Below are positions 2,534 through 19,950 of a stretch of DNA of 64,000 nt, piece by piece. The DNA lies in the NCBI GenBank assembly GCA_041640655.1, contig JBEPZV010000002.1, positions 128,001 to 192,000 of the forward strand, given 5' to 3'. This DNA is from a bacterium (lineage in GTDB: Bacteria; Acidobacteriota; Blastocatellia; HR10). Numbering within the stretch: the first letter of the stretch is position 1; each line of letters starts with the position of its first letter. The position numbers and the translations under genes are program-made. The notes under the pieces were generated by a model. The model worked only from the letters and a program-made list of their open reading frames with translations, ran no database searches and was not told the origin of the DNA.

Positions 2534-5086
2534 TCAAATGATCCAGTCGGGCACGGGAGACTCGACCTCGCCTTCGCGAACATCCAAAGTTTCATAAACA
2601 GCGCGTGACAAATAGGGAAAACCTTCGGTAATCTGGCCGACCGAGAAATCGCCCAATCGCTGGATAGGCATCGAGAGGGTATACGCCTGGAACATCGGTC
2701 GGAGCAACCGACTGATGCTGAACGCCAACCGACGCCCCGTCTCACGAGAGAGCTGACACGCATATTGCTTCACTCTCTCTGCTTCAACATGGAGAAATTC
2801 TCTCAATGGGCGGAACAATTCTCCCGAGTCACAGAGTTTGCACAGTAAATCCAATGCTCTCATTGGATCTTTACTCGACCACAGCTCAACAGCAATCTCC
2901 TTCAAAAATTCAGCCGTCTCATCGGCAATGCAAAATACCGAAACCTTCCAGGCCCGCTCCTCACCACGAAAGAGCTTCTGGAAATCCAGCTCGTCAAACT
3001 GCCAGGCGAGCGCCGAGCGCAAGATCTGCTCGGACGGCTCGCTCGACAACCGCCGCTCTAACTCCTCCACATACTCTCGCTGAATCTCCCCATAGTCGCA
3101 TTCCTCGATGATATTTCGCCTTCTTGAAAGGACATCCAGCGTTGCCGCCGTGAAGAGAGAATCGTAGATGTAGCTGTGGAACTCTCGTCCACGGTCGTTT
3201 TCATCATCCACCCAGCGATGCACCCAGACATCGGCCGGCGGTCGCTTGCCAAACCGATTCACCCGCCCGCAGATCTGCAACAGCGAATCCCACGGCGCAA
3301 AGTCCCGCACCGCCTCGTCCATATCGAGATCAACGCCGGCCTCGACGCATTGCGTCGAGACAACGCCCACCCACGCCTCCGGATCGCTTTCGATGAGCGT
3401 GCGGATTTCCTTGATCCGCCGGAGGCGTTCTACCGGCACAACGCTACCCGATAGATGGAAGAGCCTGAGCTCCCGAAACTCCCTTTCCTCTTCCTTGAGC
3501 TGACTGAGACGCGCGAATAGATCCCGCGCGCTGCGAATCGTATTGGCCACAAGCAGAACTTTTTTCCCCTTGCGTTGGAGGAGCCAATCGCCGAGCTGCG
3601 ATAGATAGTGGCTAAATGGAATGGGCTCCAGGTCGCGATGCAGGCGCGTCCGCGCGAGCGATCCGAAGTAAGATTTCTCATCTCGCACGAGTCCCGGTAT
3701 GCCCCGCAGAAAAGGCGGATGCGTGGCCGTCATATACAGGATCCGAACGCCGAGCTTTTCGCGAAGCTTTTCCAGAAATGTCCCTACGGCCGGGATGAGC
3801 CGCGCCGGGATCGTCTGCACTTCATCGAGCAGCGACACCGCTCCCGGTAGGCGAAAGAAACGACGGATGAAGCCGCGATCCTGCGAGAGGAACGAATAGA
3901 AGAGTTGATCAAAGGTCGTCACGATGAGGTCCGCGTCCCAATCCTCTAAGGCGAATCGCGCCTTCTCGAAGTTCGCTTCTTCGTTACTTTTGCTTTCGGG
4001 GAAGCTCAGGCTGTGATGCTGGATCACGGAAACGCCGGTTTTGTCTTCTGGGAAAACTCGACGCGCAATGTCCGTCGCCTGCTCGATGATGGAAAGATAA
4101 GGCAGCGCGTAAATGACGGGCTTCGATCCTTGCCTATCCTCGTGCTTGCGTTGCACGGCTCCAGCGAGGTAAAGGCCCATCAGCGTCTTGCCAAGTCCCG
4201 TCGGCAGAGTCAATCTGAAGGCCGAATCGTCCGAGCCTTCGAGGGCTTTTTGAATCTCCTGCCAGGCTCTCTCGCGAAGCCCCTGAAAGAGCGGGCTGGC
4301 CGGCGGTTGAGCGGACGCGTACTGTCGAATCCGTTCGGGATCAAGCGGCGCGGCTTGTTGGGGTTCGGGCGCTCTCACGACGCAAGCGACATCGGCTTCA
4401 GTCAGAGCCGAGACGACGAGCAGGAGGGCGAAATAAAGGTCAACGAGCCAACTCTCGGAAGGATTCGCTTCGTCGGCTTTCTGTCTGAGCAGTTGGCCGA
4501 ATTTTTGAAAGCATTTAGTGATCTGTTGGGCCGTCATTTTCTCGAACTGCTTGCGGTAATCCGCAAAGCGTAGAGTCAGGTCGAGCGGCTCGCATCGCAT
4601 CACGAAACCCCAGATGCGCTCGTCTATGTTGCTTTGAGCAACGGCGATCTGATGCTCGATACTCGCTTCTTCAAAAGCTTCTTCGAGGTTACAGAGCAGC
4701 CCATGATGGCGGTTGACGGCGTAGGCGCAGACGAAGGGGAGCAGCCGCGTCGGCTGCGGCTTCTGGCCGAAAACATGCGAGGCGACGATGAAGGTGAAGA
4801 CCGAGGAGATCGCCGCGTGATCTTTATCCTTGCCTTTGCCGCCATGGATGTAATCCTGGAACTGATGCTTCGCCTTTCCGAAGTCGTGCGTGCATCCGGT
4901 GATGAAGGCCGCTTTAGCGAGATCGTCGGCGCGAACGGCTAAATTCAAACCTGATTTGAGGCGGAGGATGAGCGTTGCGGCGCGACGGCCGGTGTCGCTA
5001 AGGTGATCGTAAAGCCGAATCGGCCGCCCCGACGCATCCGGCGGATGCGAGATCAATTCACGCATCTGGGGCGAAGGTATCGTCAT
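2534..5086 (-). CDS. cas3: CRISPR-associated helicase/endonuclease Cas3 (HD + SF2 helicase)
   Basis: LYDHL...HDFGKA...HHG HD domain; PTGLGKT, DEVQ, MTAT, STQCVEAGVDLD, QICGRVNR helicase motifs. Confidence 0.97.
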   Translation of the reverse strand: MTIPSPQMRELISHPPDASGRPIRLYDHLSDTGRRAATLILRLKSGLNLAVRADDLAKAAFITGCTHDFGKAKHQFQDYIHGGKGKDKDHAAISSVFTFIVASHVFGQKPQPTRLLPFVCAYAVNRHHGLLCNLEEAFEEASIEHQIAVAQSNIDERIWGFVMRCEPLDLTLRFADYRKQFEKMTAQQITKCFQKFGQLLRQKADEANPSESWLVDLYFALLLVVSALTEADVACVVRAPEPQQAAPLDPERIRQYASAQPPASPLFQGLRERAWQEIQKALEGSDDSAFRLTLPTGLGKTLMGLYLAGAVQRKHEDRQGSKPVIYALPYLSIIEQATDIARRVFPEDKTGVSVIQHHSLSFPESKSNEEANFEKARFALEDWDADLIVTTFDQLFYSFLSQDRGFIRRFFRLPGAVSLLDEVQTIPARLIPAVGTFLEKLREKLGVRILYMTATHPPFLRGIPGLVRDEKSYFGSLARTRLHRDLEPIPFSHYLSQLGDWLLQRKGKKVLLVANTIRSARDLFARLSQLKEEEREFRELRLFHLSGSVVPVERLRRIKEIRTLIESDPEAWVGVVSTQCVEAGVDLDMDEAVRDFAPWDSLLQICGRVNRFGKRPPADVWVHRWVDDENDRGREFHSYIYDSLFTAATLDVLSRRRNIIEECDYGEIQREYVEELERRLSSEPSEQILRSALAWQFDELDFQKLFRGEERAWKVSVFCIADETAEFLKEIAVELWSSKDPMRALDLLCKLCDSGELFRPLREFLHVEAERVKQYACQLSRETGRRLAFSISRLLRPMFQAYTLSMPIQRLGDFSVGQITEGFPYLSRAVYETLDVREGEVESPVPDWII

Positions 5087-5190
5087 GGTCTTTCAGATTC
5101 GAAATATTAAGCTCGATCTTCCCCGAAGTCGTTCGTGAGGAGGTTCAAGGAGCAAGAGATGCTGATTGAGTCTACGCCGTGTCCCATCGC

Positions 5191-5200
5191 TGCTCAATCC
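5191..5200. repeat. 10-bp direct repeat TGCTCAATCC, copy 1 (left flank of the III-D cassette)
   Basis: Identical 10-mer at 16108-16117, which spans the cas5 stop codon. Confidence 0.6.
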
Positions 5201-5225
5201 CCTATCCTTACAGATCAAAGCTCCG

Positions 5226-6506
5226 TTAATCATCCTCGGGAAGCTGAGGAAGATGATACTCATTGAGATTTTTCAAGCGATCCTGAACTAGTTTCGACAA
5301 AAAGTCTTCCACCACGACATCTCGGAGCTTCTGAAAGGCTTCTTGACCCACCGGTTGGAAACCATGCGCCAAGGGCGAGATGTTGCGGCATTCAAGATAG
5401 GGCTTCAGCCGAGATTTAGATTCTCGATACAGGTTGAGAAAATGTTGCCCTAGCTCGTCTCCAAGATCAGCGAGGAGCTCGTAGCCATGGAGCATACCTA
5501 CCTTGAGGCGCCCGTCAGGCCCCACACGGGATTCCCATTTGGGCCGCACGGCTTCTGGGATAACCCCCAAACAGACGTTGTCACTTCGAATGCCCTTGTC
5601 GTGGAGGCGCCGTTGGGCGATATACTCCATCAAACGATAGAGGAGGGCCACGGCCACATCATATCTATGCTCCTTCGCTCGCCGATCCGCATTCGCCAGG
5701 ATGTCTAAGGAGATTGCCTCGTTTAACGGTAAGCCGCACCTGCAGCTCTCACTTTTACACCGACTATTCCAGATCCCATGGACGATGGGGCTAGCCCTTT
5801 TAAGTTCGTTTTCAAGCCCTAAATCCTGTACGATGTCCTCGAAGTCCTTAAGCACCTGGCGAAGGCCCTGAGCTGCATCTTCGTAGTGAAGCACGTCCCA
5901 GGCTTCGCAGGCCTTCGCCAGTTGCTCTACAAAATTCAACCGTCTTTTGTGTTCTTCTCTGACTATACGCCACTGAAGGTCCTCGATGCGATTCAGAACG
6001 CTCGCAAAGTGGCCCGCATTGAAAAGTTGGACCAATGTCTTCCAATGTCGCCGGAACAGGAGATTTGATGGCGGGAAGCTCAATAGGCGCTCGGTGCCTG
6101 ACTTGACCTGACCCCGTTCGTCCCGCTCCCCCTCAATATAACTAACGCCAGCCAATTCGAGATTGATGGCCACATAGTCCACAGCGGCTGACATCGCTTT
6201 GGTGCCTCGCGTGTAGTCAACATAAACCTGATTAGGTTGAAACCCTCGATCCCGGAATAAAACCCGACGAATGACCTTCTCGTATTGTAATGCTAGCTCT
6301 TGAACATCATTGATCTCTTGAAACTCTTCGATCTTGTAGCGAGACTCAGGGAGGGATTGGGTTTGAACGACCTTATCAACGTTGCTTCGGCTCTGAGGCG
6401 TACAGAGAAAAAGAACGAAGTCTGGATTATGCTGGTCGGTGGCAAATACCAGCGAGCGATCTACATCCTTACCAACCCCAACTGTCAGAACTAATGCTTT
6501 ACTCAT
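5226..6506 (-). CDS. CARF-HEPN cOA-activated ribonuclease (TIGR02710/Csm6-Csx1-like)
   Basis: N-terminal CARF (LVLTVG, FLCT, VDYTRGTKAMSAA), helical middle, C-terminal HEPN motif RNISPLAHG. Confidence 0.88.
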   Translation of the reverse strand: MSKALVLTVGVGKDVDRSLVFATDQHNPDFVLFLCTPQSRSNVDKVVQTQSLPESRYKIEEFQEINDVQELALQYEKVIRRVLFRDRGFQPNQVYVDYTRGTKAMSAAVDYVAINLELAGVSYIEGERDERGQVKSGTERLLSFPPSNLLFRRHWKTLVQLFNAGHFASVLNRIEDLQWRIVREEHKRRLNFVEQLAKACEAWDVLHYEDAAQGLRQVLKDFEDIVQDLGLENELKRASPIVHGIWNSRCKSESCRCGLPLNEAISLDILANADRRAKEHRYDVAVALLYRLMEYIAQRRLHDKGIRSDNVCLGVIPEAVRPKWESRVGPDGRLKVGMLHGYELLADLGDELGQHFLNLYRESKSRLKPYLECRNISPLAHGFQPVGQEAFQKLRDVVVEDFLSKLVQDRLKNLNEYHLPQLPEDD

Positions 6507-6540
6507 AGTAGCTGGTCCCTCCGCAAAATAAGAAGAGCGA

Positions 6541-7539
6541 TCATCGAACTTCCTCCACAATCCAGCGCTCGACTTCTTGGCGGGCGCGCTCAAGTTGTCC
6601 GGGAGTTTGCGCAGTGGTCGTGAGCCGAAAGCCGATTCCCCGAACCCTCCGCCCCGGCAAATAGAGAACGAGCGCCTTCGGAGCTTCTGCCCTCACCCTG
6701 GGCTGCCCTTCCCGCCAGCCGATGTCCTCGATGCGCTCTACAAACAGAAAACGGTTGGCTAAACGGTCTGCCCACTTTCTGGTTTCCTCGGCTTCCTTAG
6801 GCTCTTTTCGTGCCAGGCTCTTCTCGCATTCGCCAGCCCGGGGTTCGGGCAGGGCCTCGACGCTCTCCAGGACCCGCAAGACCATCCGCCCCAGATCGGT
6901 CGGTCCACTAGCCGTGAGCAGTCCGTTCTGTTCGAGAAGTCCTTTGACCTCGGGACGCACCGAGCTGCCTTTCAGCCCCGCGATGATGTCCCCTAACAGC
7001 GGGAAAAGCCCAATGAAGGGCAGATTCACCAGCTTGATCTGGTCGACGGGCGGATGAAGTGCCCGCTCTTGCTCTTCTTTGCTCTTGTTCCGGAGTTTCG
7101 AAATGTGCCCTTCCTCCTCCAGCACAGGGTCATCCACAAGCACATGGAAAAGGCGCCTGGCACCATAAAACTGTACTGCCAGCGTCAGGAGTGCCGACAT
7201 GGCCTTGCGTCCGCCGGCGATGGAGGCGTAGACCTCCCAGCCCTTCTTGCGGTATTCCCTCAGGACGGCGCAGGCTTGATTCATGAACTCCAAGGCGGCT
7301 GTATCGGAGTCTACATCGTAGAAGGCTTCCAGGATGGGGGGCTCCAGAAGCGTTACCTTGCCATCGTAGTAATCCGGCAGATGCTCTCTCAAAAGACTCA
7401 GTGCATCCCGGGCATCGGTGTCTTGAGTCGTCAGAATGACGACATAGTCTATATGCACGCCGTCTGCCCGGAGGCGGTCAATGGCTTCCGTGACGACGGC
7501 GGGGCTCTCCCCCAGCGTGGCGAGGAGGACTTTCTTCAT
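6541..7539 (-). CDS. CARF protein of ring-nuclease type with a probable wHTH and an extra C-terminal domain
   Basis: LATLGESPAVVTE and SIAGGRKAMS CARF motifs; ATG 7539 after AAGGAGAGGGAG; ~100-aa C-terminal alpha/beta domain not recognised with certainty. Confidence 0.82.
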   Translation of the reverse strand: MKKVLLATLGESPAVVTEAIDRLRADGVHIDYVVILTTQDTDARDALSLLREHLPDYYDGKVTLLEPPILEAFYDVDSDTAALEFMNQACAVLREYRKKGWEVYASIAGGRKAMSALLTLAVQFYGARRLFHVLVDDPVLEEEGHISKLRNKSKEEQERALHPPVDQIKLVNLPFIGLFPLLGDIIAGLKGSSVRPEVKGLLEQNGLLTASGPTDLGRMVLRVLESVEALPEPRAGECEKSLARKEPKEAEETRKWADRLANRFLFVERIEDIGWREGQPRVRAEAPKALVLYLPGRRVRGIGFRLTTTAQTPGQLERARQEVERWIVEEVR

Positions 7540-7852
7540 GGCGGCTCCCTCTCCTTTCGGCAAACCACACAAGGAAGCGGCTGGTGTACCCGAGCACCTC
7601 GGTCACATCTTCTCTCGACAGCGGGGACAGGCGCGAGCGCCATTCCTGCATCACAATAGCAATTGTGCGCGCTGCCCGTTGAGGATCGGAGCGAAGTGCC
7701 GGAGAACTCGCCATCGAATGGGCAAGCTGAATTGCCTTGTCCAACCCTTGGCGCGCAGCATACTGTGCCCACCGCTCCCACTCCGTCCGCCGCAGACCCC
7801 CTAACCGCTCGGCAAGCTGACGTGCCAGTTCGACTTTCTCATCCGTGGTCAT
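7478..7852 (-). CDS. Small alpha-helical type III-associated protein (possible second Cas11-like subunit)
   Basis: Start overlaps the upstream RAMP stop (TGATG); helical, with C-terminal VLGYTSRFL resembling the YLGFLVRKF end of the Cas11 at 11902. Confidence 0.6.
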   Translation of the reverse strand: MTTDEKVELARQLAERLGGLRRTEWERWAQYAARQGLDKAIQLAHSMASSPALRSDPQRAARTIAIVMQEWRSRLSPLSREDVTEVLGYTSRFLVWFAERRGSRHEESPPRHAGGEPRRRHGSH

Positions 7853-8844
7853 CAGTACACCTCCCGGGGACACCGTTCATCTTTCGACTCAAAACCCGCT
7901 TTCAGCGCATTCCACGACGCCTTATGCAGAAGTCCGCTATCTTGACACGCCTGGAGGTACCGGGAAATGAGCCGAAGCACCTCTTTGCCTTGCACTACCT
8001 GGGGATTCAGTAAGCCTTTCACATTCCCGCCCCAGAACCGCATCCTCACCGGACGAAATTCCACTGAGCCAAAGCACCGGGGCTTGGCGCCGCCCAGTTT
8101 GGGAGAAAAGGCAATCTGGACCGACCCGTCTGCCAGCTCCCATCCGAGTGCATGCAGGAGTAACCCCAACTCCGCTTCGCTCAGGTTCTCAAACAGGAGA
8201 GCACCGCGAAATTTCGCCTCCCTCTGCACAGCCTCTACAAAGCGAAAGTTTTGCTGAGGAATAGAGTTCCCCACGGGCTGAAAGGTCTTGCGCTCATAGA
8301 AACGGCGCCGGTTCGGGTCAAAGCGCTTGGGCTCCCAGAGCTCGCCGATTTTCTCCACCTTAGGCTGCGTCTCTCCCTGCACCAGGAAATCGGTGAAATG
8401 CACTCGCCCTCGATAGCCGGTCGTCCCAAACAGCCGGCACGCTGGGCAGAGCGGGCTTCTCTCGTCGCGAAAGCGGCAGGGCTGATGCTGGCTTGAGCTA
8501 ACGCGCTCCCGTGGACGCCGAATCTGTGATACGCACGAATTCGAGATCGCCTCCACGATCGCCCGGATAGCGCCTTTGAGGCTGGTGCCCGGCACGCAGA
8601 GCTGCCCGTTCCGACGGTAGAAGGTGTACCACACATCGGGGCGCCGATTCCCGTGGTTCTGGTCGAACTCATACGCCCCGGAGCCTACGAAGAGGTATTC
8701 CGAGACGACCGTAAAGGTAAGCTCAAGCCGTCCAGTAAGCCCTGTAAATCTTTCGTGGGTTGTGACCTGCTGGCGCACCGGCGCCTCAGACGGGATCGGC
8801 ACCAGCACAAACGGCTTAGGCTCAGCGTTCGGATTCCTGGGCAT
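7852..8844 (-). CDS. Type III-D Cas7-group RAMP (terminal subunit)
   Basis: KPFVLVP, LFVGSG, VPGTSLKGAIR, CPACRLFG, GRVHF, LGGAKPRCFG. Confidence 0.9.
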   Translation of the reverse strand: MPRNPNAEPKPFVLVPIPSEAPVRQQVTTHERFTGLTGRLELTFTVVSEYLFVGSGAYEFDQNHGNRRPDVWYTFYRRNGQLCVPGTSLKGAIRAIVEAISNSCVSQIRRPRERVSSSQHQPCRFRDERSPLCPACRLFGTTGYRGRVHFTDFLVQGETQPKVEKIGELWEPKRFDPNRRRFYERKTFQPVGNSIPQQNFRFVEAVQREAKFRGALLFENLSEAELGLLLHALGWELADGSVQIAFSPKLGGAKPRCFGSVEFRPVRMRFWGGNVKGLLNPQVVQGKEVLRLISRYLQACQDSGLLHKASWNALKAGFESKDERCPREVY

Positions 8845-9283
8845 CGCTTCTTACCTCCCGTGGACTGACAAAGGTTGCGACCTTGTCCCGATAAAAGACC
8901 CGACATATCAGGCGAGCTTCCCGAGCGTTGACGACAGGGTAGACTTCAAACTGCGGGGCAAAGCGCTTGTCTTCCAGGTTGACCAATTGGCTTGTACACT
9001 CCACGACCTCCCACTCTCCCGGGACCGGCCTGAGCGCATCAGGCAGATCCCGGCGCTCCGCATCGCTCAGGACCCAGACCCGATAGAGCCCCTCGGCTGC
9101 CTTCTCCCAGCGGATCTCTACCTCGTGGTTGAAGGCACACCCAGCATCCCGGAGTTCCACGCTGTTCGGAAAATCAAGCTGCGCAAGCTCCCAGCTCAGG
9201 AGCACCCGCCCAGATAGCCGCTCGATGAGCTGCACGAGCGCTTCTGCGCCGAGTTCGCCCGCATAGACCCAGCCCCGCATCAT
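8822..9283 (-). CDS. csx19: Type III-D subunit Csx19 (probable)
   Basis: 153 aa, GCAFNHEVEIRWE motif, canonical position between Cas7 genes in III-D. Confidence 0.7.
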   Translation of the reverse strand: MMRGWVYAGELGAEALVQLIERLSGRVLLSWELAQLDFPNSVELRDAGCAFNHEVEIRWEKAAEGLYRVWVLSDAERRDLPDALRPVPGEWEVVECTSQLVNLEDKRFAPQFEVYPVVNAREARLICRVFYRDKVATFVSPREVRSDAQESER

Positions 9284-10164
9284 ACCGTCTCCAGAATCTG
9301 CGTGAGAGATTCCACCGCCTTGTCTGCTACTCTCTTCCAGGCTTCCCGGTCGTAGGTGCGCCGGAGGAAGACTGCAAGGTCAGTCTCGGCGCTCTCGGGA
9401 AGGTCTTCCAGGCGATCGGAAGCCTGAAGGCCGTAGGCCTTGCGTTCTTCCTCACTGACAAAGGCGCCCACGCCCCAGATCGCATTGGGAGAAAGCCCCG
9501 GCTTTTTGGCCAGCTCTACCGTGGCGTTCTCAACGCTCATCGAGACTTCACCAAAGCCCCGGTTCTTGCCAAAGCCCAGTTTCACAAGCCCGTCGTTGAT
9601 CGCCTGAAGCGTCAGCGCCAGAAGCCCCAGCTGCCAGACCTCGAAGTTCTCCAGCACCAGCGCGGTCCGGAAGCGCCCCTGCACCAGCACCTCGATGTCA
9701 AAAGGGCCCACGGCTACGGCATTCGTCAGCCGGGAGATCGCCACGCCGTAGCGGGTTTCGGTCTTGACCGCACCCTCGGGGAAGGCGTCCGTAAAGGAGA
9801 GCCGACCCTTCAGGCGGGTATTGCCATAGATTCTGCAGGCGCGGCAGGATTTCTTGTAGACCGTCGCCGGATCTTTTTCACTTTCCAATCTACGCCCGCA
9901 GTAGTCCGGGTTAGAGGGAAAGGGCTCAGGGCAGGCTCCATCCTCCCTCACGGTCCGCAGCACCTTTTCCGTGAAGCTTCGGAACGTGCCCTTAAGCGAA
10001 GAGCCGGGGATAAAGACTATCTCACCCTCGGACGTCCACGTGCGCACAAACTGCATATCGGGAAGCGAGGGATTGGGCGAAGCCAGTCCCGACTTGATGA
10101 GAAGGGGTGCACGAGGCTCAATCACAAGATCCAGCTTCAGGGCGTTCCAGCGGCGCTTATGCAT
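9280..10164 (-). CDS. Type III-D Cas7-group RAMP (Csm3-like)
   Basis: PLLIKSG...PDMQFVRT, IPGSSLKG, CRACRIYG, LGFGKNRGFG. Confidence 0.92.
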   Translation of the reverse strand: MHKRRWNALKLDLVIEPRAPLLIKSGLASPNPSLPDMQFVRTWTSEGEIVFIPGSSLKGTFRSFTEKVLRTVREDGACPEPFPSNPDYCGRRLESEKDPATVYKKSCRACRIYGNTRLKGRLSFTDAFPEGAVKTETRYGVAISRLTNAVAVGPFDIEVLVQGRFRTALVLENFEVWQLGLLALTLQAINDGLVKLGFGKNRGFGEVSMSVENATVELAKKPGLSPNAIWGVGAFVSEEERKAYGLQASDRLEDLPESAETDLAVFLRRTYDREAWKRVADKAVESLTQILETV

Positions 10165-11056
10165 GGCTTCCTCCCTCCTTCAGGGCTTGTACAAGTCCCT
10201 GCAGAAGCTCCGAATGCGAAACGGCGGGAGGCTGACCCGCACCCGTCAGGTAGTCCAGCAGATTTTCTCTGCCGATTTTCCGAATGGTGAGTTCAACCAG
10301 TTCGCCCCAGCCGGGACCGCGGGTGGTCTTGCCGCCCACGGGCAGTTCGCCCTTACGCATCGCTTCCAGCGCCAGAAGCAGGAGCCCCACTTCCCACTCC
10401 TCGGCGTTTTCCACCACGATGGTAATGCCGAACGCTGCTCCTGCAGGCACAGTCTCGAAGTCGTATTTGATGCCGGATTTCGCCGAGCCCAGGTCGCGGT
10501 CAATTCCCACGCCGTCGCGGATTTCTGTGAGGCGGAGTAGGCTCTCTTGATTGGACAACATAGCATCCCGGAACGAGACCCGGGATGCCAGCCAGGGCGA
10601 ACCAAAAATCCGACAGGCAGTGCAGGAGTGCTGCCAGACCTGTTGCACGAGCTTTTCATCGTCCAACTGGTTATTCTGCGTTGCACGTTGGACCATACAG
10701 TTTTTGCACCTGCCGCAATCGGAACAGCAACTTCCTTTGCAGTCCTCACAGTGCTCACAGCATTTGGCGATGATGCAGCGATTCTTCTCATCCAGCGGGT
10801 CGCACGCCCAGAGCCGTTCGCCCTGGTGGGTCTGCTTGAGTTCGTCCATCGTGCGCAGGAGCCGCTCTACGTGCGCGCGCACCGCGCCCTTGAGGGAGGA
10901 ACCCGGGATGAAGGGAACGCCTTCCGGGGTCTTGATGACGGGAAGGTCGGAGCCAGCGGGCATGAGCGATGCGCGGGCGCCCACGGAAAGGGCGGTCTTC
11001 ATCCGCAGGGTTGCGGTAATGAGCCAACGGTTTTCGAAGTGCCAGAAGGAATGCAT
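10157..11056 (-). CDS. Type III-D Cas7-group RAMP (Csx7/Csm3-like) with a Cys-rich insert
   Basis: ALSVG...SDLPV, IPGSSLKGAVR, CTACRIFGS, RDGVGIDR, VGGKTTRGPG. Confidence 0.92.
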   Translation of the reverse strand: MHSFWHFENRWLITATLRMKTALSVGARASLMPAGSDLPVIKTPEGVPFIPGSSLKGAVRAHVERLLRTMDELKQTHQGERLWACDPLDEKNRCIIAKCCEHCEDCKGSCCSDCGRCKNCMVQRATQNNQLDDEKLVQQVWQHSCTACRIFGSPWLASRVSFRDAMLSNQESLLRLTEIRDGVGIDRDLGSAKSGIKYDFETVPAGAAFGITIVVENAEEWEVGLLLLALEAMRKGELPVGGKTTRGPGWGELVELTIRKIGRENLLDYLTGAGQPPAVSHSELLQGLVQALKEGGSHA

Positions 11057-11059
11057 GCT

Positions 11060-11896
11060 CTATCCCTCCCTCTGCTTTTCTAGCCACACGGCAACTTCTC
11101 GGGTAAAGGTGGAGAACTGTTCCGGGGCCTGCTGGAGGGCTTCGAGCACATGCCGAAGATCAATCTGCACGTATTCGTGCACAAGCACGTTCCGAAACCC
11201 TCCCGCTCCGCGCAAAGAAGCATACAGGGATTGGGAGATCACACCCACCGAGCACAGCTCTCGCAAAAGCGCCTCGTACGTTTCCGGCTTCCTTCGGAAG
11301 TGCTCGGCGAGGATGTGGTCGGCAAGCTGGAAAATCAGCGTTAATCCCGCCAGGAGCCCTCGTTCCACTGTCCAGCGGAGGCTCAGATTGGTCTCTAGCT
11401 CCAGCAGGGTTACGGTTCGATATTTCGCCAGCTCCGCACTGACCTTCTGGAGCTCCTCCAGCGCTGCGGCGATGAAGGTGCGGTTCAGTCCCATGGCTTC
11501 CTCCTTTTTCCGATGCGTCCGGAGACCTTCCTCCCGGAGAAGTGCTCGCGTAGCGGCTTCCCAGCGCATTCGTTCGCCCGACTCTCGCTCGTAGAGGCAG
11601 ATTCCCGTGCGCATGATCTGCTCCCGCAGCCAGAGGGGCGCCTGGGGAAGCTCCACCAGGTCCAGTCGGTCGGTGCCGAGCGCTTCGGAAAGCTCTGCAT
11701 AGAACGGCTGGAAGCGAAAGTCTGGGGCAGGCAAGAGCGCCAGGTCCACATCTTCTGCCTCCTCCGGCATACGGGCTGCCGAGCCGAACAGGTAGACAAG
11801 CCGCACCGGGTGACGGGCGAAGAGGGCATCGAGCTCCGAAAGCCGGAAACCTCTTCTCAAGGATGGCAGATGCGCGTATTTCTCTCGCACTCCCAT
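11060..11896 (-). CDS. Fused minimal nucleotidyltransferase (MntA-like) - HEPN (HepT/DUF86-like) protein
   Basis: N-half YLFGS-x9-DVDLA and DLVEL; C-half GFRNVLVHEY (R-x4-H-x-Y); single uninterrupted frame. Confidence 0.88.
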   Translation of the reverse strand: MGVREKYAHLPSLRRGFRLSELDALFARHPVRLVYLFGSAARMPEEAEDVDLALLPAPDFRFQPFYAELSEALGTDRLDLVELPQAPLWLREQIMRTGICLYERESGERMRWEAATRALLREEGLRTHRKKEEAMGLNRTFIAAALEELQKVSAELAKYRTVTLLELETNLSLRWTVERGLLAGLTLIFQLADHILAEHFRRKPETYEALLRELCSVGVISQSLYASLRGAGGFRNVLVHEYVQIDLRHVLEALQQAPEQFSTFTREVAVWLEKQREG

Positions 11897-11901
11897 GCCA
11901 C

Positions 11902-12279
11902 TCAGCTCTTCCGCTCCGCTACGAACTTCCGCACCAGAAAACCCAGATAGAGGCGGATCAGCTCCATACGCACCCGGCGGAGCAGTTCAGGATTCCGTTG
12001 TGCAATCTGCTCCGCCCTCCGACTTAGCTCTCGCATATCCTCCAGAATCTGGCGCCCCACCTCAGCAGGGAGCTTTCTCCGCCCCATCTGGTAGCCGATG
12101 AAGTTTTCCAGCGCCAACACGGAATCGGTAGCCGAGGCCAGATTTTGAAGGTTGCGCAGTTGGGATTCCTCAAGGTCTAGGCTCGCTGCACGGGTTCTTG
12201 TAATGCAGGACTCCGCCTTCTGCACGATGTCGTCGAGGCTGTGTTCAATCTGCTGCAAAACCTTTGCTTCGGTGCTCAT
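11902..12279 (-). CDS. Type III small subunit Cas11 (Csm2-like)
   Basis: 125 aa helical, SQLRNL...FIGYQMGR...YLGFL; follows csx10. Confidence 0.8.
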   Translation of the reverse strand: MSTEAKVLQQIEHSLDDIVQKAESCITRTRAASLDLEESQLRNLQNLASATDSVLALENFIGYQMGRRKLPAEVGRQILEDMRELSRRAEQIAQRNPELLRRVRMELIRLYLGFLVRKFVAERKS

Positions 12280-13475
12280 ACCGGCATCACCTCCATGTGG
12301 AACGGATGGCAGATGAGGATTTCGCCCAGCCCTTCGTCGGTACGGATTCCCACACCTCGGGCTTCACGGTCTTCGAGAAACGGCAAAAGCGCCTGCGGGG
12401 AGGCGTCCACCCGGAACACATACACACTCCCCATCGCCGCACCCAGATGGGTGGGCTTAGGCAGCCCCCAGGCCGTGGAGAAGCCTCCCACGAAGGTCGG
12501 CTGCGTCGCCCAAAAGACGGGCTCCAGTATCTGCCCGTTGAAGGGCAGAAAGAGCTTCAGTGTAGGCAGACCGTCCGGATCACGAAGAACGGCGGGCACC
12601 AGCAGGTCCACGCTGAAGTAGGTTCCAGATGGCGCATCTGGCACGGAACTGCCCACCTGCCGGGCAAGTGCGGCAAGGTCGCGCCAGACCTCGCGGAGCT
12701 TGTCATTGAAGATCCTGAGGCGCTCTGCAATCGGGTCCACGCGGGGTTCGGTTTCCCGCAGACGGGCGGCGCCGAAGCCCCGCGTGGTCAGGGCGCCAAC
12801 GCCTGCCTCTTCCACCGCCTGCTTGAGTTCTTCGATGACCGTTTCGTCCTCGGTCCAGATCCTCCCCACGAAACACCCCTGCGGTTGCATCCCGATCAAC
12901 CGATAGAGCATTCCTTCCTGCGCGGCACGGCGGTGACGGCTGAGCGCTACCTTCGTTTGCACACCTTGAGACATAGGGACTTTCATCCACCCCTCAGGCA
13001 AGCTTGCATAAAATCCACCGACCTTCTCCATCCGTCCGCCGCAGCGCTTATCCTCCGCCATCTGCGCCGTACAGCGAAGGAGCAGCGGAACAGGGAAGCG
13101 AGCCCCCAAACGTTTCAACTCTGAGTATGCCACAGCAACGAGGAGACTATCACGGATACCATGTCCTACGTCCTTCCGCCTCTCTCGGAGAACGTTACGA
13201 AAGCCACCGTGAAGCTTACACTCCAGGGCTGTCATCGGAAATGGCAAAGCGTACACGCTTTCTGAAGGCGTTGGAAAGAAATTACCAAACCGAATTTGTT
13301 GCACGGCAGGCAGAATTTCATTTGTGTTTCCCTGCAGTTTAAGCCACTCCGCCAACGCCCCCCGGAGCACGCTGCCAGGGATATAACCTCGCGTGCCAAG
13401 GTAGTCGCCTTTGGGCTTCACATCGCCCGTAAGAATCGGTTCTTCAGGAATCACTACAATGAAATACTCCCTCAT
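12276..13475 (-). CDS. csx10: Type III-D Csx10 (Cas5-group RAMP)
   Basis: YIPGSVLRGALA, VGALTTRGFG, MGSVYVF, GVGIRTDEGLG (two RAMP G-loops). Confidence 0.9.
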   Translation of the reverse strand: MREYFIVVIPEEPILTGDVKPKGDYLGTRGYIPGSVLRGALAEWLKLQGNTNEILPAVQQIRFGNFFPTPSESVYALPFPMTALECKLHGGFRNVLRERRKDVGHGIRDSLLVAVAYSELKRLGARFPVPLLLRCTAQMAEDKRCGGRMEKVGGFYASLPEGWMKVPMSQGVQTKVALSRHRRAAQEGMLYRLIGMQPQGCFVGRIWTEDETVIEELKQAVEEAGVGALTTRGFGAARLRETEPRVDPIAERLRIFNDKLREVWRDLAALARQVGSSVPDAPSGTYFSVDLLVPAVLRDPDGLPTLKLFLPFNGQILEPVFWATQPTFVGGFSTAWGLPKPTHLGAAMGSVYVFRVDASPQALLPFLEDREARGVGIRTDEGLGEILICHPFHMEVMPV

Positions 13476-14122
13476 GATGCAGCCCCATCAGGTCGTTCAA
13501 CAAATGCCCTGACCTTGTGAGCGAGGTCATCCTTAGAGATATTCTGTCCGTTCACGCTTGCTTGAAAGTCTTCCAACTCTACCCAGCCTAGACCTCGGGA
13601 GCGTGCCGCGCCAATAGCATAGCCCATATTGGCTCCCAGCCAAAGGAGCGCCGCCGCTGCTCTGGCTTCGCTCTCAGAATCGAAAATTCCCTGAACCTTG
13701 CCCTCCAATGTCGGATACCATGCCACCTCTGTGGAGAACAATCGCTCTTCATAAGCGGTCTTGCGACGCCGGCTCAAAGAAACACTCATCTTCACATCCC
13801 GCAAAGCACCCTGAAACTTAGCATCGTGGAACCGGAGAGGCGACCTATCCCGCGGGTGTCCGAAGACCTCGCACACGGGACAGAGCCCACAGATGGTGGA
13901 TACTGTAGAAGCGTCGCATACACGCACACCGAGACCCCGCAAGGCGCGTTCTGCTCCCTCTCGCAGCCAACCTTTGAGCGTGGTGGCGGGGATGACAGGA
14001 TGCTTGCCGTCATGCCAATCCAGCACCAGCGCCTTGTCGGTCCACAACTTTGCTCGCTCGCCGGTCACATGTACGCCCGACGCGAACCGGAAGCGAAGAA
14101 GAACTTCAAGCCGACTCCTCAT
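13472..14122 (-). CDS. csm3: Type III-D Cas7-group RAMP Csm3
   Basis: VHVTG...TDKAL, IPATTLKG, CPVCEVFG, IGAARSRGLG; ATG overlaps the cas10 stop. Confidence 0.88.
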   Translation of the reverse strand: MRSRLEVLLRFRFASGVHVTGERAKLWTDKALVLDWHDGKHPVIPATTLKGWLREGAERALRGLGVRVCDASTVSTICGLCPVCEVFGHPRDRSPLRFHDAKFQGALRDVKMSVSLSRRRKTAYEERLFSTEVAWYPTLEGKVQGIFDSESEARAAAALLWLGANMGYAIGAARSRGLGWVELEDFQASVNGQNISKDDLAHKVRAFVERPDGAAS

Positions 14123-15795
14123 AGACGAACCTCCAAGACGGGATACTTGTGTGCCTCCAGCTCGATTAGTTCCAGCACATCCAGAAGAGCCGTCTGCCAG
14201 CCGCCAGCATTTCTCCGCCAAAACCAGAATCCCTCAGGAGCTGGTGTTCCACCGTCCACTAACTCCCCTAACTCCTCATAAGCAGCTCGCAGGTCCTCTT
14301 TATGCTCTTTGGAGCGCGCCACCTGATACAACGCATAATTGAGAGACACATGGACGCCCTTTTCCAACGATTCGGCCAAGGTTCTACGCTGAGCGGCTGG
14401 GCTATGGGATAACTTCCTCGCCAGCGCTGACAGTCGCTCTGCTTGTGCTACCGTATAAGGGCGAGCGGTCAGATGGCGCGCAGCCTCGTCACGCGCATAT
14501 AGAGCCTTCAGTATAACCTTCGCCTCTTCGGATATAACCGGCGCTCGCAACCACAGATGGCAGAGCGTTCCGGTTCGTTTCTCTCGCGCCAATCTCTTCG
14601 CTTCCTTGAGCAACCCTTCCGCCAGATCGAACAGAAAGCGAATGGGATATTTCACATCGGCGATCGCCAAACCAGCGGACGTGGTCAGACGAGTTCCTCT
14701 GCCGCCAAATGCAGCTTGGAGTTTTTGAATCTCAGTATGGCTCTCAAACCCCCTGAGCAGATTCACCGCCAACGCCCAACCAGCACTTGCGGGCACGATG
14801 ACCACGACATCATCTCCTCCGAGGGCGATGATCTCAAACGGCAGCGTGTTCCGTGCGAGCCGCTCTGATCCGAACGTTTCCCACAGGGCCGCAAAGAGCG
14901 CCTCCTCCGTCGCTGTGCTCAAAGCTGTTGAAATATCGCGGTACTCCTGCAACGATTTCGCTCGTTGCAGCAGATCGCCCATGTTATTTCCGTCGGCGTA
15001 GAGCAGGGCAATTCTTCCTTCTCCGGCTGCCAGGGCATCCAAATCTTGTGGGGTTTTCCCAATGATTTCCACACCTTTTTTCTCCCGCACCCACTTGCGG
15101 AATCTCAGCAAAAACTCTCGTTTCCCCCCTCGGCCTTTCCGGCGCTTCATCGAACACAAGCCGCAGAGCCACTCTGCTGGTTCTCGCGCCTCATCACGCT
15201 CCTCTGCCGCCCGTTTCCCGCACGATTGGCACCGCTGGTGAATGGGCAAAGTTTCGTAGAAAGGCGCGCGTTCTTTCCGGCGCTTTGCCTCCTGAAGCTT
15301 CCCCGTGAGTTGAGCAACGAGTTCACCGAAGTTCTTTCGATCCGCGCGGTTCGTGACGATCGCATCAAAATGGCTAAAGAGCAAATCTTGGGCAATCCCG
15401 CGCCCCTGGAGTTGGTTGAGGGTTCGCTCATCATGAGGAAAGATGCCTCGCTCCAAATCAGCACGATCCATCGGATCCGATGCGACGACAGTGATGGTTG
15501 CAGTTTTCGTGCGTTCAAGGTAAAGCCGTTCGATTTCCCGCTTCAACCTGTCCGCCTCACCCGCGGGCACTACGGCAAGGAAACCGCCACCTCCACAATA
15601 AATCAGATCCTTCTCTGGAGCATTTTGTGGGAAAAGCTCGCGAATCTCTTCTTCCAGCTCCGTTAAGATTTCGCTCCCGCCACGGATCTCCGGCAAAGCG
15701 CTTGTCTCATACACGAACGTCTTGATCGCGTCCACGTCGCCGAGCAGGAGGCGAACAGGCGTAACTTCTTTGCCATTTTCAGTTTGTGCGCTCAA
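14119..15795 (-). CDS. cas10: Type III-D Cas10, no HD domain, intact GGDD
   Basis: GDVDAIK..IRGGS, YCGGGGF, CQSCG..CGLC zinc finger, YADGNNMG, LGGDDV; likely TTG start at 15795 after GAGGAG. Confidence 0.95.
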   Translation of the reverse strand: MSAQTENGKEVTPVRLLLGDVDAIKTFVYETSALPEIRGGSEILTELEEEIRELFPQNAPEKDLIYCGGGGFLAVVPAGEADRLKREIERLYLERTKTATITVVASDPMDRADLERGIFPHDERTLNQLQGRGIAQDLLFSHFDAIVTNRADRKNFGELVAQLTGKLQEAKRRKERAPFYETLPIHQRCQSCGKRAAEERDEAREPAEWLCGLCSMKRRKGRGGKREFLLRFRKWVREKKGVEIIGKTPQDLDALAAGEGRIALLYADGNNMGDLLQRAKSLQEYRDISTALSTATEEALFAALWETFGSERLARNTLPFEIIALGGDDVVVIVPASAGWALAVNLLRGFESHTEIQKLQAAFGGRGTRLTTSAGLAIADVKYPIRFLFDLAEGLLKEAKRLAREKRTGTLCHLWLRAPVISEEAKVILKALYARDEAARHLTARPYTVAQAERLSALARKLSHSPAAQRRTLAESLEKGVHVSLNYALYQVARSKEHKEDLRAAYEELGELVDGGTPAPEGFWFWRRNAGGWQTALLDVLELIELEAHKYPVLEVRL

Positions 15796-15853
15796 TTTAT
15801 TCTCCTCGTCTCCACATCGCGCGTTTCGTTCGCGGGGATCAAAGTGTGCCAAT

Positions 15854-15882
15854 AATATACCACGAAGCTAAGCAAAGAGTAA
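15854..15882 (-). promoter_or_regulatory. Probable sigma70 promoter of the III-D cassette
   Basis: TTACTC-N17-TATATT with an extended -10 (TGG TATATT), in an AT-rich gap upstream of cas10. Confidence 0.55.
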
Positions 15883-16107
15883 TAAGACCAGAGATCCCTC
15901 ACCTTTAGAAAGCCGGAGCTTCGGTAGAGCCATCGCTCAGGGAGCCCTTGAAAATCAGGGCAGTCCTGAAAGCGCTTGCGCGTTGAGCACTCGACTTCGC
16001 GCCTTTTGGGCTCAAGATGGGGAATTCCTTTTTCCACTGCCAAGACGCAGAGGATCGAGTAGCGCGATTTGACCAATCGCGCCACTTTAACTGCACGCCA
16101 AACCGTA

Positions 16108-16117
16108 TGCTCAATCC
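16108..16117. repeat. 10-bp direct repeat TGCTCAATCC, copy 2 (right flank; includes the cas5 stop)
   Basis: Identical to 5191-5200. Confidence 0.6.
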
Positions 16118-16875
16118 ACGCATCGCTCAAAAAATACACATTGCACCTCCTTCTTCCTAAGCACGAAGATCGGGATTTTACCTCCGGCACATCGCACCTT
16201 CAGCGGTTTCGCTTCGCGCGAGAGATAGGCCAGATAGAGATGGCGAAAGCGACGATCCGGGAAGACTTCGTTGGGAACTCGCTCTTCGCGCAAGATGGCT
16301 TCGGACTCGGAAAGATCAATCGCCTTCGCTGTCGCCTCATCGAGAGGGAGGACCGAACAGATATCGGCTTGCTCTACCTCAATCAGTTCTGCAACATCTT
16401 CTCCTTCCCACTCGATGTCGGCCAAAAAACCCATGATTCCCATGCAAGGCGGATACACCCATCGTTTCTGCTGGAGACGCTCTCTCAGTTCGTTCATCAG
16501 CTGCTCATCCCGATGCCAAAAGACAATCCGATAGTGAGGTCGGCGAATGACCTCCAGGTTCTCCTGAAATGACTCGATCATCTTGGCAGGGCGGAATCTC
16601 CCTTTATTCAGGATTGGTGGACCTTGGCGCCACTTTTCAGGAAGACGATCCTTCACGATCGATCGCAGCGGACAGACGGCGATACGCGTCGCGTCTGCCG
16701 GAAAGCGTTCCGCCAGCTTGCTACGTGGGACGCCCAAGATCGCGCCGACCATCCCGATCACGGATGTGCGCGGCGGAAAACTATAGGTCAGGGCCGAGGT
16801 AGTCGTGAACCACTTGCGCCAGTGCCCAAATGTGCCACGAATGGTGAAAAGATAGACTGGTATCCCATCGCCCAT
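16111..16875 (-). CDS. cas5: Type I-B Cas5
   Basis: IRGTFGHWRK..TTTSALTYSFPPRTSVIGMVGAILG; YPPCMG. Confidence 0.95.
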   Translation of the reverse strand: MGDGIPVYLFTIRGTFGHWRKWFTTTSALTYSFPPRTSVIGMVGAILGVPRSKLAERFPADATRIAVCPLRSIVKDRLPEKWRQGPPILNKGRFRPAKMIESFQENLEVIRRPHYRIVFWHRDEQLMNELRERLQQKRWVYPPCMGIMGFLADIEWEGEDVAELIEVEQADICSVLPLDEATAKAIDLSESEAILREERVPNEVFPDRRFRHLYLAYLSREAKPLKVRCAGGKIPIFVLRKKEVQCVFFERCVD

Positions 16876-16891
16876 AGTACCTCCATCACGC

Positions 16892-17917
16892 TTAGAATTC
16901 TCGGATGGTCAAGGCATCAGACTTGTCGCCCAGGAGCTCCTTTAACTTTTCGCTCAGCTCCTCAGGCGAGAGCCTCAGCCCGGCATCTATCCAGCATTCG
17001 ATTCGGGCCAAATTCTCGCGCCGCCGTTGAACGCACTCCAGCACGCCGTCTATTTTCACTTTGTAGTCTTTAGGAGAGCGGATGCGCCGCTCGTCTCCCA
17101 GATTGTGCTCCAGCTCGACGCGGTCGAGGAAATAGCCACATTGAACTTCGTTCCGGAAGTCGAAGCGCAAAAGAAGACGCGGATGGTGGAAAGCCTTCGA
17201 GCGCGAATGCAGCGCCAACGTGCCGTGCCACAGCGCTTCCATCAGCAGTTTTACATCATCCTCGGTGAGGCCCGTTTCCTTTGCCAGGTTCTCGTTGATC
17301 ACACCGTAGAAGCCGATGAGCGCGTAGGGGACGATGAACTCGCGCCGAAACGTCTTCTGTCGGGCTGTTTCTTTGGAAGCGAAGCCGCCGGTGCCCGCGA
17401 TTTCGATGATCTCAGCAGCATGGAGGCTCTGTCCCGGATTGAACTGCACGGCTCCGGTCAGTTGAATGCCTCCGCTCTCGCCCTTTTCCTCGGTCTTCGC
17501 TGAGGCTTCGCCCCCACCCTTCTTGCCCTTCGTTGTTTTCTTCTCAGTGATCGGCACGAGAGCGCCGAACAGCCGCACATCCACGCACTTCTTGATGAGC
17601 TGCTCTTTAGCCTTTTCCACTTCGCCGGCTTTCGGCAAGCTTCCGAAAATCTCTTCGTAGCGTCGCTCCGCCGTTAGAGCCTTCTCATCAGCGACGCGAA
17701 CGAAGATTTCCAGGCCATCGTCCCGATCGCGGCGCTTGTAGCGGAGGATATAATCCCGAATGGTCCGTTTGAGGCGCACATCGGTGACATCAATCCGACC
17801 CGTTTCGGGGTCCTGTCTTGGGCGGTTTTCGAACGGATCGCCGTTCGGATTGCAGCGAAACACGTCGTAGAGAAAGAGGATCTCAGACCGATAGGGATAG
17901 GTTGAACTTTTTTCCAT
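16892..17917 (-). CDS. cas7: Type I-B Cas7 (Csh2 family)
   Basis: EILFLYDV..CNPNGDP..NRPR, TDVRLKRTIRDY, DVRLFGA. Confidence 0.95.
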   Translation of the reverse strand: MEKSSTYPYRSEILFLYDVFRCNPNGDPFENRPRQDPETGRIDVTDVRLKRTIRDYILRYKRRDRDDGLEIFVRVADEKALTAERRYEEIFGSLPKAGEVEKAKEQLIKKCVDVRLFGALVPITEKKTTKGKKGGGEASAKTEEKGESGGIQLTGAVQFNPGQSLHAAEIIEIAGTGGFASKETARQKTFRREFIVPYALIGFYGVINENLAKETGLTEDDVKLLMEALWHGTLALHSRSKAFHHPRLLLRFDFRNEVQCGYFLDRVELEHNLGDERRIRSPKDYKVKIDGVLECVQRRRENLARIECWIDAGLRLSPEELSEKLKELLGDKSDALTIREF

Positions 17918-17934
17918 GACGCACCTCCTTGGGT

Positions 17935-18432
17935 TTAGGATTCACCTTCTATTTCCTCTTCGGGAGAAGCTTCCTCGGCCTCTTCGCCCGGTGGCGTCTC
18001 TAACGCCTTACGGACGGCATCCACCGTCGCCCACCAGAGCCCCCAGCCCAGACAGAAGCAAAACCGAGCCTCCTCATCCGAGAGCTCGCCGTCCTGCGAA
18101 GCGAAATCGCACGCCGCCTGTTGAATCGCCTGAATCGCCTGGGTGTTGGCGTCTAATTGGCGAAGCTTCAGCATGAGTTCAGGGAAGATCTTCACCATGA
18201 TCTCTTCCCGCGAAACCGCAAGCCCTCGCAGGCGGCTGACGATGGGCATCTCGCCGGCCTTGCTCTGTCTCTCGCCTCGCTGCTTGCTTTCCACCTGCCC
18301 AAAGAGAACACCAATGAGGAACGCCGCACGCTTTGCGGGGGAATCAAGGAGAAGCCTTGGCTTGAAGAAATTCTCCCAAAACTCCGGCGTCACCCCGGAC
18401 TTTACTGGTTGCGTTGTGGTTTGCGTTGCCAT
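17935..18432 (-). CDS. Cas11b translated from an internal in-frame start in cas8b (predicted)
   Basis: GAAGGAGGT-gcaaat-ATG inside cas8b just before the helical C-terminal domain; 165 aa. Confidence 0.75.
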   Translation of the reverse strand: MATQTTTQPVKSGVTPEFWENFFKPRLLLDSPAKRAAFLIGVLFGQVESKQRGERQSKAGEMPIVSRLRGLAVSREEIMVKIFPELMLKLRQLDANTQAIQAIQQAACDFASQDGELSDEEARFCFCLGWGLWWATVDAVRKALETPPGEEAEEASPEEEIEGES

Positions 18433-19947: not shown

Positions 19948-19950
19948 GGC

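Follow-up and report, generated by a model that had tools for sequence, protein, structure and literature searches.

A single-chain MntA-HepT-like toxin-antitoxin gene with a candidate internal start inside a type III-D CRISPR-Cas effector operon

In a stretch of 64,000 nucleotides of bacterial DNA, here called the window, a single open reading frame on the minus strand (P0001, 11060..11896) encodes a protein of 278 amino acids without an internal stop, in which an MntA-like nucleotidyltransferase (MNT) domain is joined to a HepT-like HEPN RNase domain. The gene is packed between cas11 and csx7 of a type III-D effector operon. Taken as a whole, the gene is probably best explained as a type VII toxin-antitoxin in a single chain with the architecture of the protein FhepTA, in which an adenylyltransferase of the MntA type is followed by a HEPN RNase of the HepT type. 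Architecture, motifs, conservation, contexts and the homology between the junction Met and the hepT start are observed in the sequences; AMPylation, toxicity, internal translation and any role in immunity are inferred.

Both active sites can be recognized by their motifs. The nucleotidyltransferase motif G38-S39-x9-D49-V50-D51 is encoded at 11744..11785 and the HEPN motif R235-NVLV-H240-E-Y242 at 11171..11194, both on the minus strand, and Y242 is the expected AMPylation site. The Pfam family Polbeta (PF18765) matches residues 24-105 with 44.2 bits (cut-off 26.9) and HepT-like (PF01934) residues 154-267 with 60.2 bits (cut-off 23.5). Furthermore, the NCBIfam equivalog HepT_toxin (NF047751) reaches 73.2 bits (cut-off 60) and MntA_antitoxin (NF047752) 59.0 bits, which is 1 bit short of its cut-off of 60. 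An earlier note on this DNA had described one 278-residue frame with GS-x9-DVD and RNVLVHEY, and the reading frame, the motifs and the Pfam scans confirm this description. Scans of the protein with Pfam, NCBIfam and PADLOC matched only the MNT and HEPN domains and no CARF, SAVED or other sensor domain. In an alignment of 37 members, G38, S39, D49, D51, H194, N236, H240 and Y242 are invariant, and R235 is conserved in at least 90%. Since the catalytic residues and Y242 are kept to this degree, both active sites as well as the tyrosine are under selection.

The AlphaFold2 model of the protein (mean pLDDT 83.9, pTM 0.52) consists of two confident domains and a linker, residues 128-135, with a pLDDT below 50. 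Here, the HEPN half superimposes on the HEPN toxin of A. flos-aquae (7ae8/7ae9) with a TM score of 0.93 by target and an rmsd of 1.5 Å, and the MNT half on MntA from Shewanella (6m6u_A) with a TM score of 0.71. A profile search of the PDB sequences returned the A. flos-aquae entries 7ae2-7ae9 and the Shewanella HepT/MntA entries 5yep and 6m6u as the closest (1e-17 to 1e-11). These data bear on the idea that the gene is a domesticated nucleotidyltransferase, whose HEPN part only binds the substrate as in kanamycin nucleotidyltransferase and has no RNase activity. It would be in line with the statement, in the part of the survey cited here, that MNT-fused HEPN domains typically lack catalytic residues (Anantharaman et al. 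2013, PMC3710099) and with ANT(4') and AadA, which appear as weak whole-length fold matches (TM 0.3-0.4). Nevertheless, the conservation of R235, the invariance of H240 and Y242, the HepT_toxin match above cut-off and the close superposition on active HEPN toxins argue against it, and we regard this idea as highly improbable.

As a homodimer, the protein was modeled with an ipSAE of 0.63 compared to 0.00 for the best control, a mark which was reached by 20 of the 30 same-chain pairs and by 1 of the 23 single chains among solved proteins. The runs have at least 77% of their contacts in common, with a partner pLDDT of at least 78. Since HEPN toxin dimers have already been solved, the success of the dimer model may reflect this likeness. 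The modeled interface is formed solely by residues 144-190 and 239-243, and the HEPN motif is located at it. All of these residues lie inside the short product that would arise from an internal start at the domain junction. This product could therefore associate with a second copy or with the full-length chain, and become AMPylated in trans.

The fusion itself is a conserved property of the family. In a collection of 5.8 billion proteins, 96 of 105 homologues carry both Pfam domains in about 280 amino acids, and their source names point to Armatimonadota, Chloroflexota, Acidobacteriota and Clostridia. A scan of metagenome contigs revealed 79 loci, and among the 43 with a full-length single match the junction is free of a stop in 39; a scan of genome contigs with the single protein gave 2 loci only. 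Three Logan assemblies from other studies, each of them possibly related to the source sample, contain 10900-12300 in one contig each, are identical to the window at the junction and show no indel and a single base difference, at 11048 within csx7. The earlier note had considered that the fusion might be an assembly error or a strain-specific stop loss and had proposed to look for a stop at the junction. With 96 of 105 homologues fused, 39 of 43 metagenome loci open and the contigs of three other studies the same at this place, such an artifact is close to inconceivable and was rejected. The search of the whole library gave 1526 representatives at E ≤0.001 vs. 11 at 1e-30, and about twenty more distant fused forms are found among the best 150 of the 1526. 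Judged by these searches, the close fused family appears to be small.

The two-gene relatives suggest how the fusion was formed. In 10 of 16 such loci hepT starts 1–20 nt before the mntA stop, and in all 16 the two genes are in different frames. Since the hepT start overlaps the mntA end in another frame, a frame change near the overlap is sufficient to make a fusion. Stand-alone HepT proteins align, starting with their residue 1-3, to the query from residues 135-137 on, and because the alignment begins there, Met135 corresponds to the former hepT initiator. This methionine is the last residue of the linker (11492..11515, minus strand). The ancestor would therefore have been an mntA-hepT pair with overlapping stop and start codons, and a frame change would have joined both genes and left the ribosome-binding site and the ATG of hepT within the new frame. 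A tree was calculated with a quick method from the HEPN half only, with L074, L073 and L100 absent (L073 and L100 being partial genes). In this tree, all fused forms together with four split ones form a starred clade of 43 rows, and inside it a starred clade of 14 rows unites the genes embedded in III-D operons with L047, L001/34/35 and L037. The four split members inside the fused clade indicate that switches between fused and split forms do occur.

At the domain junction, the Shine-Dalgarno-like (SD-like) sequence AAGGAGG (11506-11500, minus strand) is followed by the spacer aagcc and an ATG (11494-11492). This ATG opens an in-frame internal reading frame of 144 amino acids (11060..11494, minus strand), which comprises the HEPN domain alone and, by its alignment with stand-alone HepT proteins, is a candidate for free HepT. 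The earlier note had compared this site to the ribosome-binding site of the cas7-like gene starting at 10164; indeed, the ten bases before the internal ATG, GGAGGAAGCC, are identical in both places. The predicted anti-SD pairing amounts to -11.8 kcal/mol for the internal ATG vs. -3.5 kcal/mol for the gene's own ATG. The former value ranks in the top 1.5% when every codon position of the gene is scored, which exceeds chance, and relatives show the same feature.

Over 97 members of fused length, column 135 contains Met in 81, Val in 9, Thr in 2 and Ile in 1, and no other column of 127-136 rises above 45%. On DNA level, the junction codon of 39 distinct genes is ATG in 29, GTG in 5, ATA in 3 and ACG in 2. 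The SD score before this codon belongs to the best 5% of the gene's codon positions in 20 of the 39 genes and to the best 10% in 26, and the latter cases are spread over 7 of 8 subclades. The residues encoded at the SD-like motif vary by subclade (KEEA, KGGET, GRTA, RWGMAP, SGGGS, SREGS and others), and a G-rich stretch persists. Selection acting on the RNA and not on the protein would be expected to leave such a pattern, and the Met lies, in addition, within a disordered linker. An internal start is therefore plausible across the family. The claim of the earlier note that SD and ATG at the junction are real has therefore gained support, since they match the hepT start of the two-gene relatives and are retained across the family.

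The picture is not uniform. One subclade of 12 is without an SD-like motif. Its own start codon is preceded at a distance of a few bases by a TATACT-like box, which suggests that this subclade may not rely on SD pairing at all. The nearest relative of the window's gene (L045), 94% identical and at the same position of a III-D operon, has ATA together with a weakened SD at the junction. This points to a dispensable internal start. ATA is also found in L070 and in L040, L041 and L042, which are identical in the MNT-HEPN gene, ACG in L048 and L060, and GTG in L044 and L037. Given ATA in L045 and L040-42 and GTG in L044 and L037, the internal start is not strictly kept in the III-D setting. Within the subclade of the window, 32 of 283 codons have two variable sites, and the junction codon, as one of them, belongs to the more variable ones. 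In 9 of 23 more distant fused proteins neither Met nor Val is present there. The predicted RNA fold of 11455-11545 (minus strand) has a z of -0.42 compared to shuffles, with no sign of a structure hiding or exposing the internal site. Weighing the sequences, we think that free HepT of 144 amino acids is probably made in this organism; for the family, the chances that the internal start is kept by selection appear about even.

The surrounding operon is well-defined. Directly upstream lies a III-D cas11 (csm2-like; 11902..12279, minus strand; PADLOC PDLC01474, Csm2 CAS-III-D, 4e-29) and directly downstream csx7, a cas7 (10157..11056, minus strand; TIGR02581, 228 bits vs. a cut-off of 108). The coordinates of the reading frames leave 5 nt to cas11 and 3 nt to csx7, so that the tight packing between a cas11 and a cas7 described in the earlier note is confirmed together with the identity of both neighbors. 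The III-D module with its accessory genes extends over 5226..15852 on the minus strand and comprises, according to Pfam, NCBIfam and PADLOC, cas10, csm3-like, csx10, cas11, MNT-HEPN, csx7, csm3-like, csx19, cas7-like, CARF5 and Csx1. The last is a CARF-HEPN protein (5226-6593, minus strand; family scans). The Cas10 protein contains GGDD at residue 345. The entire module is nested between the I-B genes cas6-cas8b-cas7-cas5 and cas3. Promoter- and terminator-like sites in 10000-16500 are not more common than in shuffled sequences, and with the tight junctions this suggests that the gene is read together with the effector genes. A CRISPR array search of the window found no array and two repeats only, and no match of the spacer between them to the rest of the window exceeds 10 nt. 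In a metatranscriptome, contigs of a relative (85–98% alike) extend over parts of this region, bridge both gene boundaries and leave 11182-11463 uncovered; such libraries may contain DNA, and contigs give neither starts nor levels, so that they were not taken as a sign of transcription.

The family was followed beyond the window by a tblastn search of the window's 18 cas-locus proteins over 80 loci. The order cas11-MNT-HEPN-csx7, as far as visible, is present in 12 of the 80 loci in addition to the window (L036, L038-L046, L073 and L100), and the order in those loci is cas10, csm3-like, csx10, cas11, MNT-HEPN and csx7. Compared to the window, the MNT-HEPN genes embedded there are 49–94% and the cas11 genes 36–90% identical. 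The embedded junctions are 4-nt overlaps or 3–6-nt gaps in all eight complete loci. Outside of these operons the contexts are diverse. The members with about 50% identity (L048-L072 and L078) have no cas match in the tblastn search, and the ten loci scanned from this group adjoin housekeeping genes such as SmpB, Era, ScpB, PabA and carbonic anhydrase. L001/L034/L035 (79% identical) are located beside a type II restriction enzyme and a DNA methylase, and L047 (64% identical) lies between a CARF-HEPN-Csx3 gene and an I-B cas8b. In L043, the MNT-HEPN gene is intact; of csx10 a fragment is present, and csx7 continues after some 80 residues as the back half of a CARF-HEPN-Csx3 gene. L037 had been a candidate for a further embedded locus and was rejected, since it has only the gene, 36 nt upstream and 24 nt downstream in common with L036.

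Among 401 genomes of the window's phylum, the family profile matches in 80 (a tally including G049), mostly as two-gene pairs, and the close fused form is found only in the genome of the window. Csx10 is present in 5 of these 401 genomes, and in all four other III-D loci cas11 is directly followed by csx7. The absence of the gene from these four loci indicates an insert and not a core subunit. The co-occurrence with III-D loci proposed as a check in the earlier note thus holds for one lineage, in which the 12 loci carry the gene. It does not hold for the III-D type in general, as the four other loci of the phylum lack it and the family is mainly solitary; the note's concern that homologous III-D loci might be devoid of the gene applies to these four and not to the loci of that lineage. 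The sequences point to an insertion into III-D in one hot-spring lineage, where the gene apparently stays in place. A collection of 50,697 phage records contained no match to the family, and 72,556 plasmids gave three distant haloarchaeal matches with 24–27% identity, which are annotated as two genes. Carriage on phage or plasmid therefore finds no support from these collections. The solitary, defense-locus and III-D contexts together suggest an autonomous and mobile module, which often lands in defense loci.

Pairs of HepT and MntA are usually encoded by two genes, as the earlier note had stated, and this is correct; however, the fused form has already been published as FhepTA. The account cited here describes FhepTA as SO_1440, a 276-residue MNT-HEPN protein from the prophage CP4So of Shewanella oneidensis, which oligoAMPylates its own tyrosine; toxicity is seen with the isolated HEPN part and not with the full-length protein (Yao et al., NAR 2026, PMC13000451). 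According to the same account, HEPN RNases are active as dimers, FhepTA itself is mainly monomeric with its MNT domain hindering HEPN pairing, and two extra HEPN cysteines provide an added redox control. Falling ATP, Lon proteolysis of the MNT part and AMP-removing enzymes are listed there as options for release, and fhepTA is stated to be without a ribosome-binding site or ATG for the HEPN part and to have a short hydrophobic linker of 3–5 residues (PMC13000451). That DUF86 HEPN domains are "occasionally fused to MNT" had been noted before (Anantharaman et al. 2013, PMC3710099, in the part cited).

As far as this published description goes, both proteins share a single chain of about 276–278 amino acids, the order MNT then HEPN, the nucleotidyltransferase motif and R-x4-H with the adjacent tyrosine. 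In contrast to the prophage gene, the window's gene resides in a cas operon, keeps a strong internal SD and ATG and has a charged linker, HRKKEEAM at residues 128-135. Its only cysteines are C100 and C215, which give no evidence for a redox switch like that of the two extra HEPN cysteines in FhepTA, and its homodimer model passes, which disagrees with the mainly monomeric state reported for FhepTA. By architecture and the published description, and not by sequence alignment or shown descent, the window's gene belongs with the fused MNT-HEPN modules represented by FhepTA.

The two-gene type VII systems, HepT/MntA from S. oneidensis (SO_3166/SO_3165, PDB 5yep/6m6u) and its counterpart from A. 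flos-aquae (7ae2-7ae9), agree with the window's protein in both domains by sequence and fold and in R-x4-H-x-Y. Furthermore, the junction Met aligns with the first residues of their toxin; the difference is one gene in the window and two genes there. The A. flos-aquae module is said to lie near a type I-D CRISPR locus, reportedly after work by Songailiene in 2020. A toxin-antitoxin made of RNAs, CreTA, reportedly safeguards type I-B cas genes under Cascade-dependent repression, as Li et al. are said to have described in Science in 2021. CreTA resembles the present case as a toxin-antitoxin lodged in a CRISPR-cas locus and serves as the model for a guard role; it differs from it in consisting of RNAs and not of protein domains.

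For the HEPN toxin of A. flos-aquae, trimming of tRNA 3' ends is described in the cited part of PMC11610964. In-frame internal starts are known from other defense genes. The Rpn "genes within genes" toxin-antitoxins use one, with the short product as the antitoxin (PMC10327210, in the part cited), and Cas11 arises by internal in-frame translation of cas8/cas10d, as the cited parts of two reports describe (10.1101/2020.04.18.045682; PMC11899642). As described, Rpn shares with the window's gene a second protein from an in-frame internal start in a defense gene; in contrast to it, the short product of the window's gene would be the toxin. The CARF-HEPN RNases Csm6/Csx1, of which Csx1 is present in the window's locus, are likewise HEPN RNases encoded with a type III system. 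In contrast to them, the gene described here has no CARF domain and its control would be AMPylation and not cyclic oligoadenylate. A literature search of open full text, which covers neither subscription papers nor supplements, found no MNT-HEPN gene in a type III operon. The same was true for the available text of the type III accessory gene survey (Shah et al. 2018, PMC6546367), the 2025 CRISPR classification (PMC12669027) and the 2025 review on toxin-antitoxins and CRISPR (PMC12737573). Within this literature, the fused gene type is already known, its placement inside a III-D operon is not.

Mechanistically, the MNT domain would use ATP to add AMP to Tyr242 beside the R-x4-H site and thereby hold the RNase off, and pairing of HEPN domains would form the active site. 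The strong internal SD and ATG would probably give free HepT of 144 amino acids, which would be neutralized in trans by the full-length protein. The module should work alone, as most members are solitary genes. Its insertion between cas11 and csx7 would have taken place in one hot-spring Chloroflexota lineage, where it would be read with the effector genes. As to its role in the operon, the gene would most likely be a selfish element or a guard that is lodged there, or else a back-up RNase gated by stress, and the effector complex would not include it as a subunit. Addiction or ATP sensing beside Cas10, both brought up in the earlier note, would be pure conjecture.

How much of this mechanism is used can be viewed in different ways. 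If the internal start has no function, only the full-length protein would matter, the SD and ATG would be a relic of the two-gene state or be kept by fused/split switching, and the gene would be a passenger of the operon. We regard this as rather unlikely. It would fit well with the ATA and ACG junction codons of L045, L040-42, L070, L048 and L060, with the four split members of the HEPN tree and with the distant fused forms and FhepTA, which lack the start (the latter according to the cited part of PMC13000451). However, Met in 81 of 97 members within an otherwise variable linker, and an SD-like motif that persists in 7 of 8 subclades at about 50% protein identity under changing residues, speak against a relic. 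Moreover, the internal site of the window matches the operon's best in strength, so that some initiation would be hard to avoid. At the other end, one frame might encode a full two-part toxin-antitoxin with the full-length protein as catalytic antitoxin and free HepT from a selected internal start, acting as a CreTA-like guard of the operon or firing when ATP falls. In this complete form, the proposal must be called unlikely.

A different view is that of a working III-D accessory effector, whose AMPylated RNase would be released as infection or Cas10 lowers ATP, leading to abortive infection beside Csx1. The gene has held the same operon slot while cas11 dropped to 36–43% and the gene itself to 49% identity, and an insertion maintained while cas11 fell to 36% identity could mean a use to the operon. 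Cas10 has its GGDD and CARF effectors come after it, the FhepTA authors propose the ATP level as one input (PMC13000451, in the part cited), and relatives outside of III-D also occur in defense loci, beside CARF-HEPN-Csx3 in L047 and a restriction-modification pair in L035. Nevertheless, no CARF, SAVED or other sensor domain was matched and no link to Cas10 was found. Most of the family is solitary among housekeeping genes, all four other III-D loci are without the gene, and L043 and L037 have an intact copy with truncated or missing III-D neighbors. We therefore consider an accessory effector distinctly unlikely. The lack of a sensor domain, the III-D loci without the gene and a gene that outlives its cas neighbors favor a lodged module over an integrated accessory effector.

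Fused MNT-HEPN proteins were first characterized in 2026, in a prophage, and the release of the toxin is the question they pose. To this, the family described here contributes an in-frame start that is conserved and could allow one gene to deliver free toxin as well. It also offers a natural example in which such a module is read along with the genes of a type III-D effector complex. Should the module guard the operon or serve as its back-up, toxin-antitoxin safeguards of CRISPR would extend from the RNA pairs of type I to a protein toxin under enzymatic control in type III. As a mere passenger, it would still show that III-D operons tolerate a lodged selfish gene at their tight cas11-cas7 junction over the long term.

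The genes of the III-D module, together with its CARF genes (5226-15852), lie nested between I-B genes, all on the minus strand, an arrangement which covers positions 2534-20694 of the window. Here, family matches from Pfam, NCBIfam and PADLOC place the I-B genes cas6-cas8b-cas7-cas5b at 16111-20694 on one side of the module and the I-B cas3 at 2534-5086 on the other, with cas1 at 672-1874. The arrangement differs in the closest relative, L045, where the III-D operon comes after a cas1 and I-B genes are absent.

Two direct repeats with a spacer are present at 20839-20940, around 145 nt upstream of the start of the I-B cas6 and in the same orientation. The repeats are 33 nt each and 85% alike, with a start-to-start distance of 69 nt and a spacer of 36 nt, which is the geometry of a one-spacer mini-array. 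Such a geometry occurs in cas-regulating or CreA-like RNAs, which the pair resembles in this respect. The spacer has no match longer than 10 nt elsewhere in the window, and no CRISPR array longer than this pair is present in the 64 kb.

At the boundary of cas5b and cas10, a 132-aa frame (15792-16190, minus strand) overlaps the end of cas5b as well as the TTG listed as the cas10 start, and no Pfam, NCBIfam or PADLOC family matches it. Where cas10 really begins is uncertain: the alignments of relatives start at residue 6 in some cases and at residues 32-35 in others.

In the related metagenomic locus L043, the frame at 3295-4437 is chimeric, joining around 80 N-terminal residues of Csx7 to the back part of a CARF-HEPN-Csx3 protein (profile positions 180-464), and adjoins a csx10 fragment. 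The cas11 and the MNT-HEPN gene are intact, and L043 looks like a deletion derivative of the III-D locus that has kept both.

The region 10900-12300, which contains the fused gene, was also found in Logan assemblies: in the hot spring run X3 the contig that holds it is just 1605 nt long and has a word depth of 3334, while two other runs have it at word depths of 14-30 on contigs of 7-28 kb.

Furthermore, among the more distant, approximately 50% identical members without cas hits, the loci L062-L072 and L078 display a GGTATACT-like box 5-7 nt ahead of the start codon of the fused gene, and an SD-like motif is absent from these start contexts. Taken together, this suggests that the fused gene is expressed from leaderless transcripts in this subclade.
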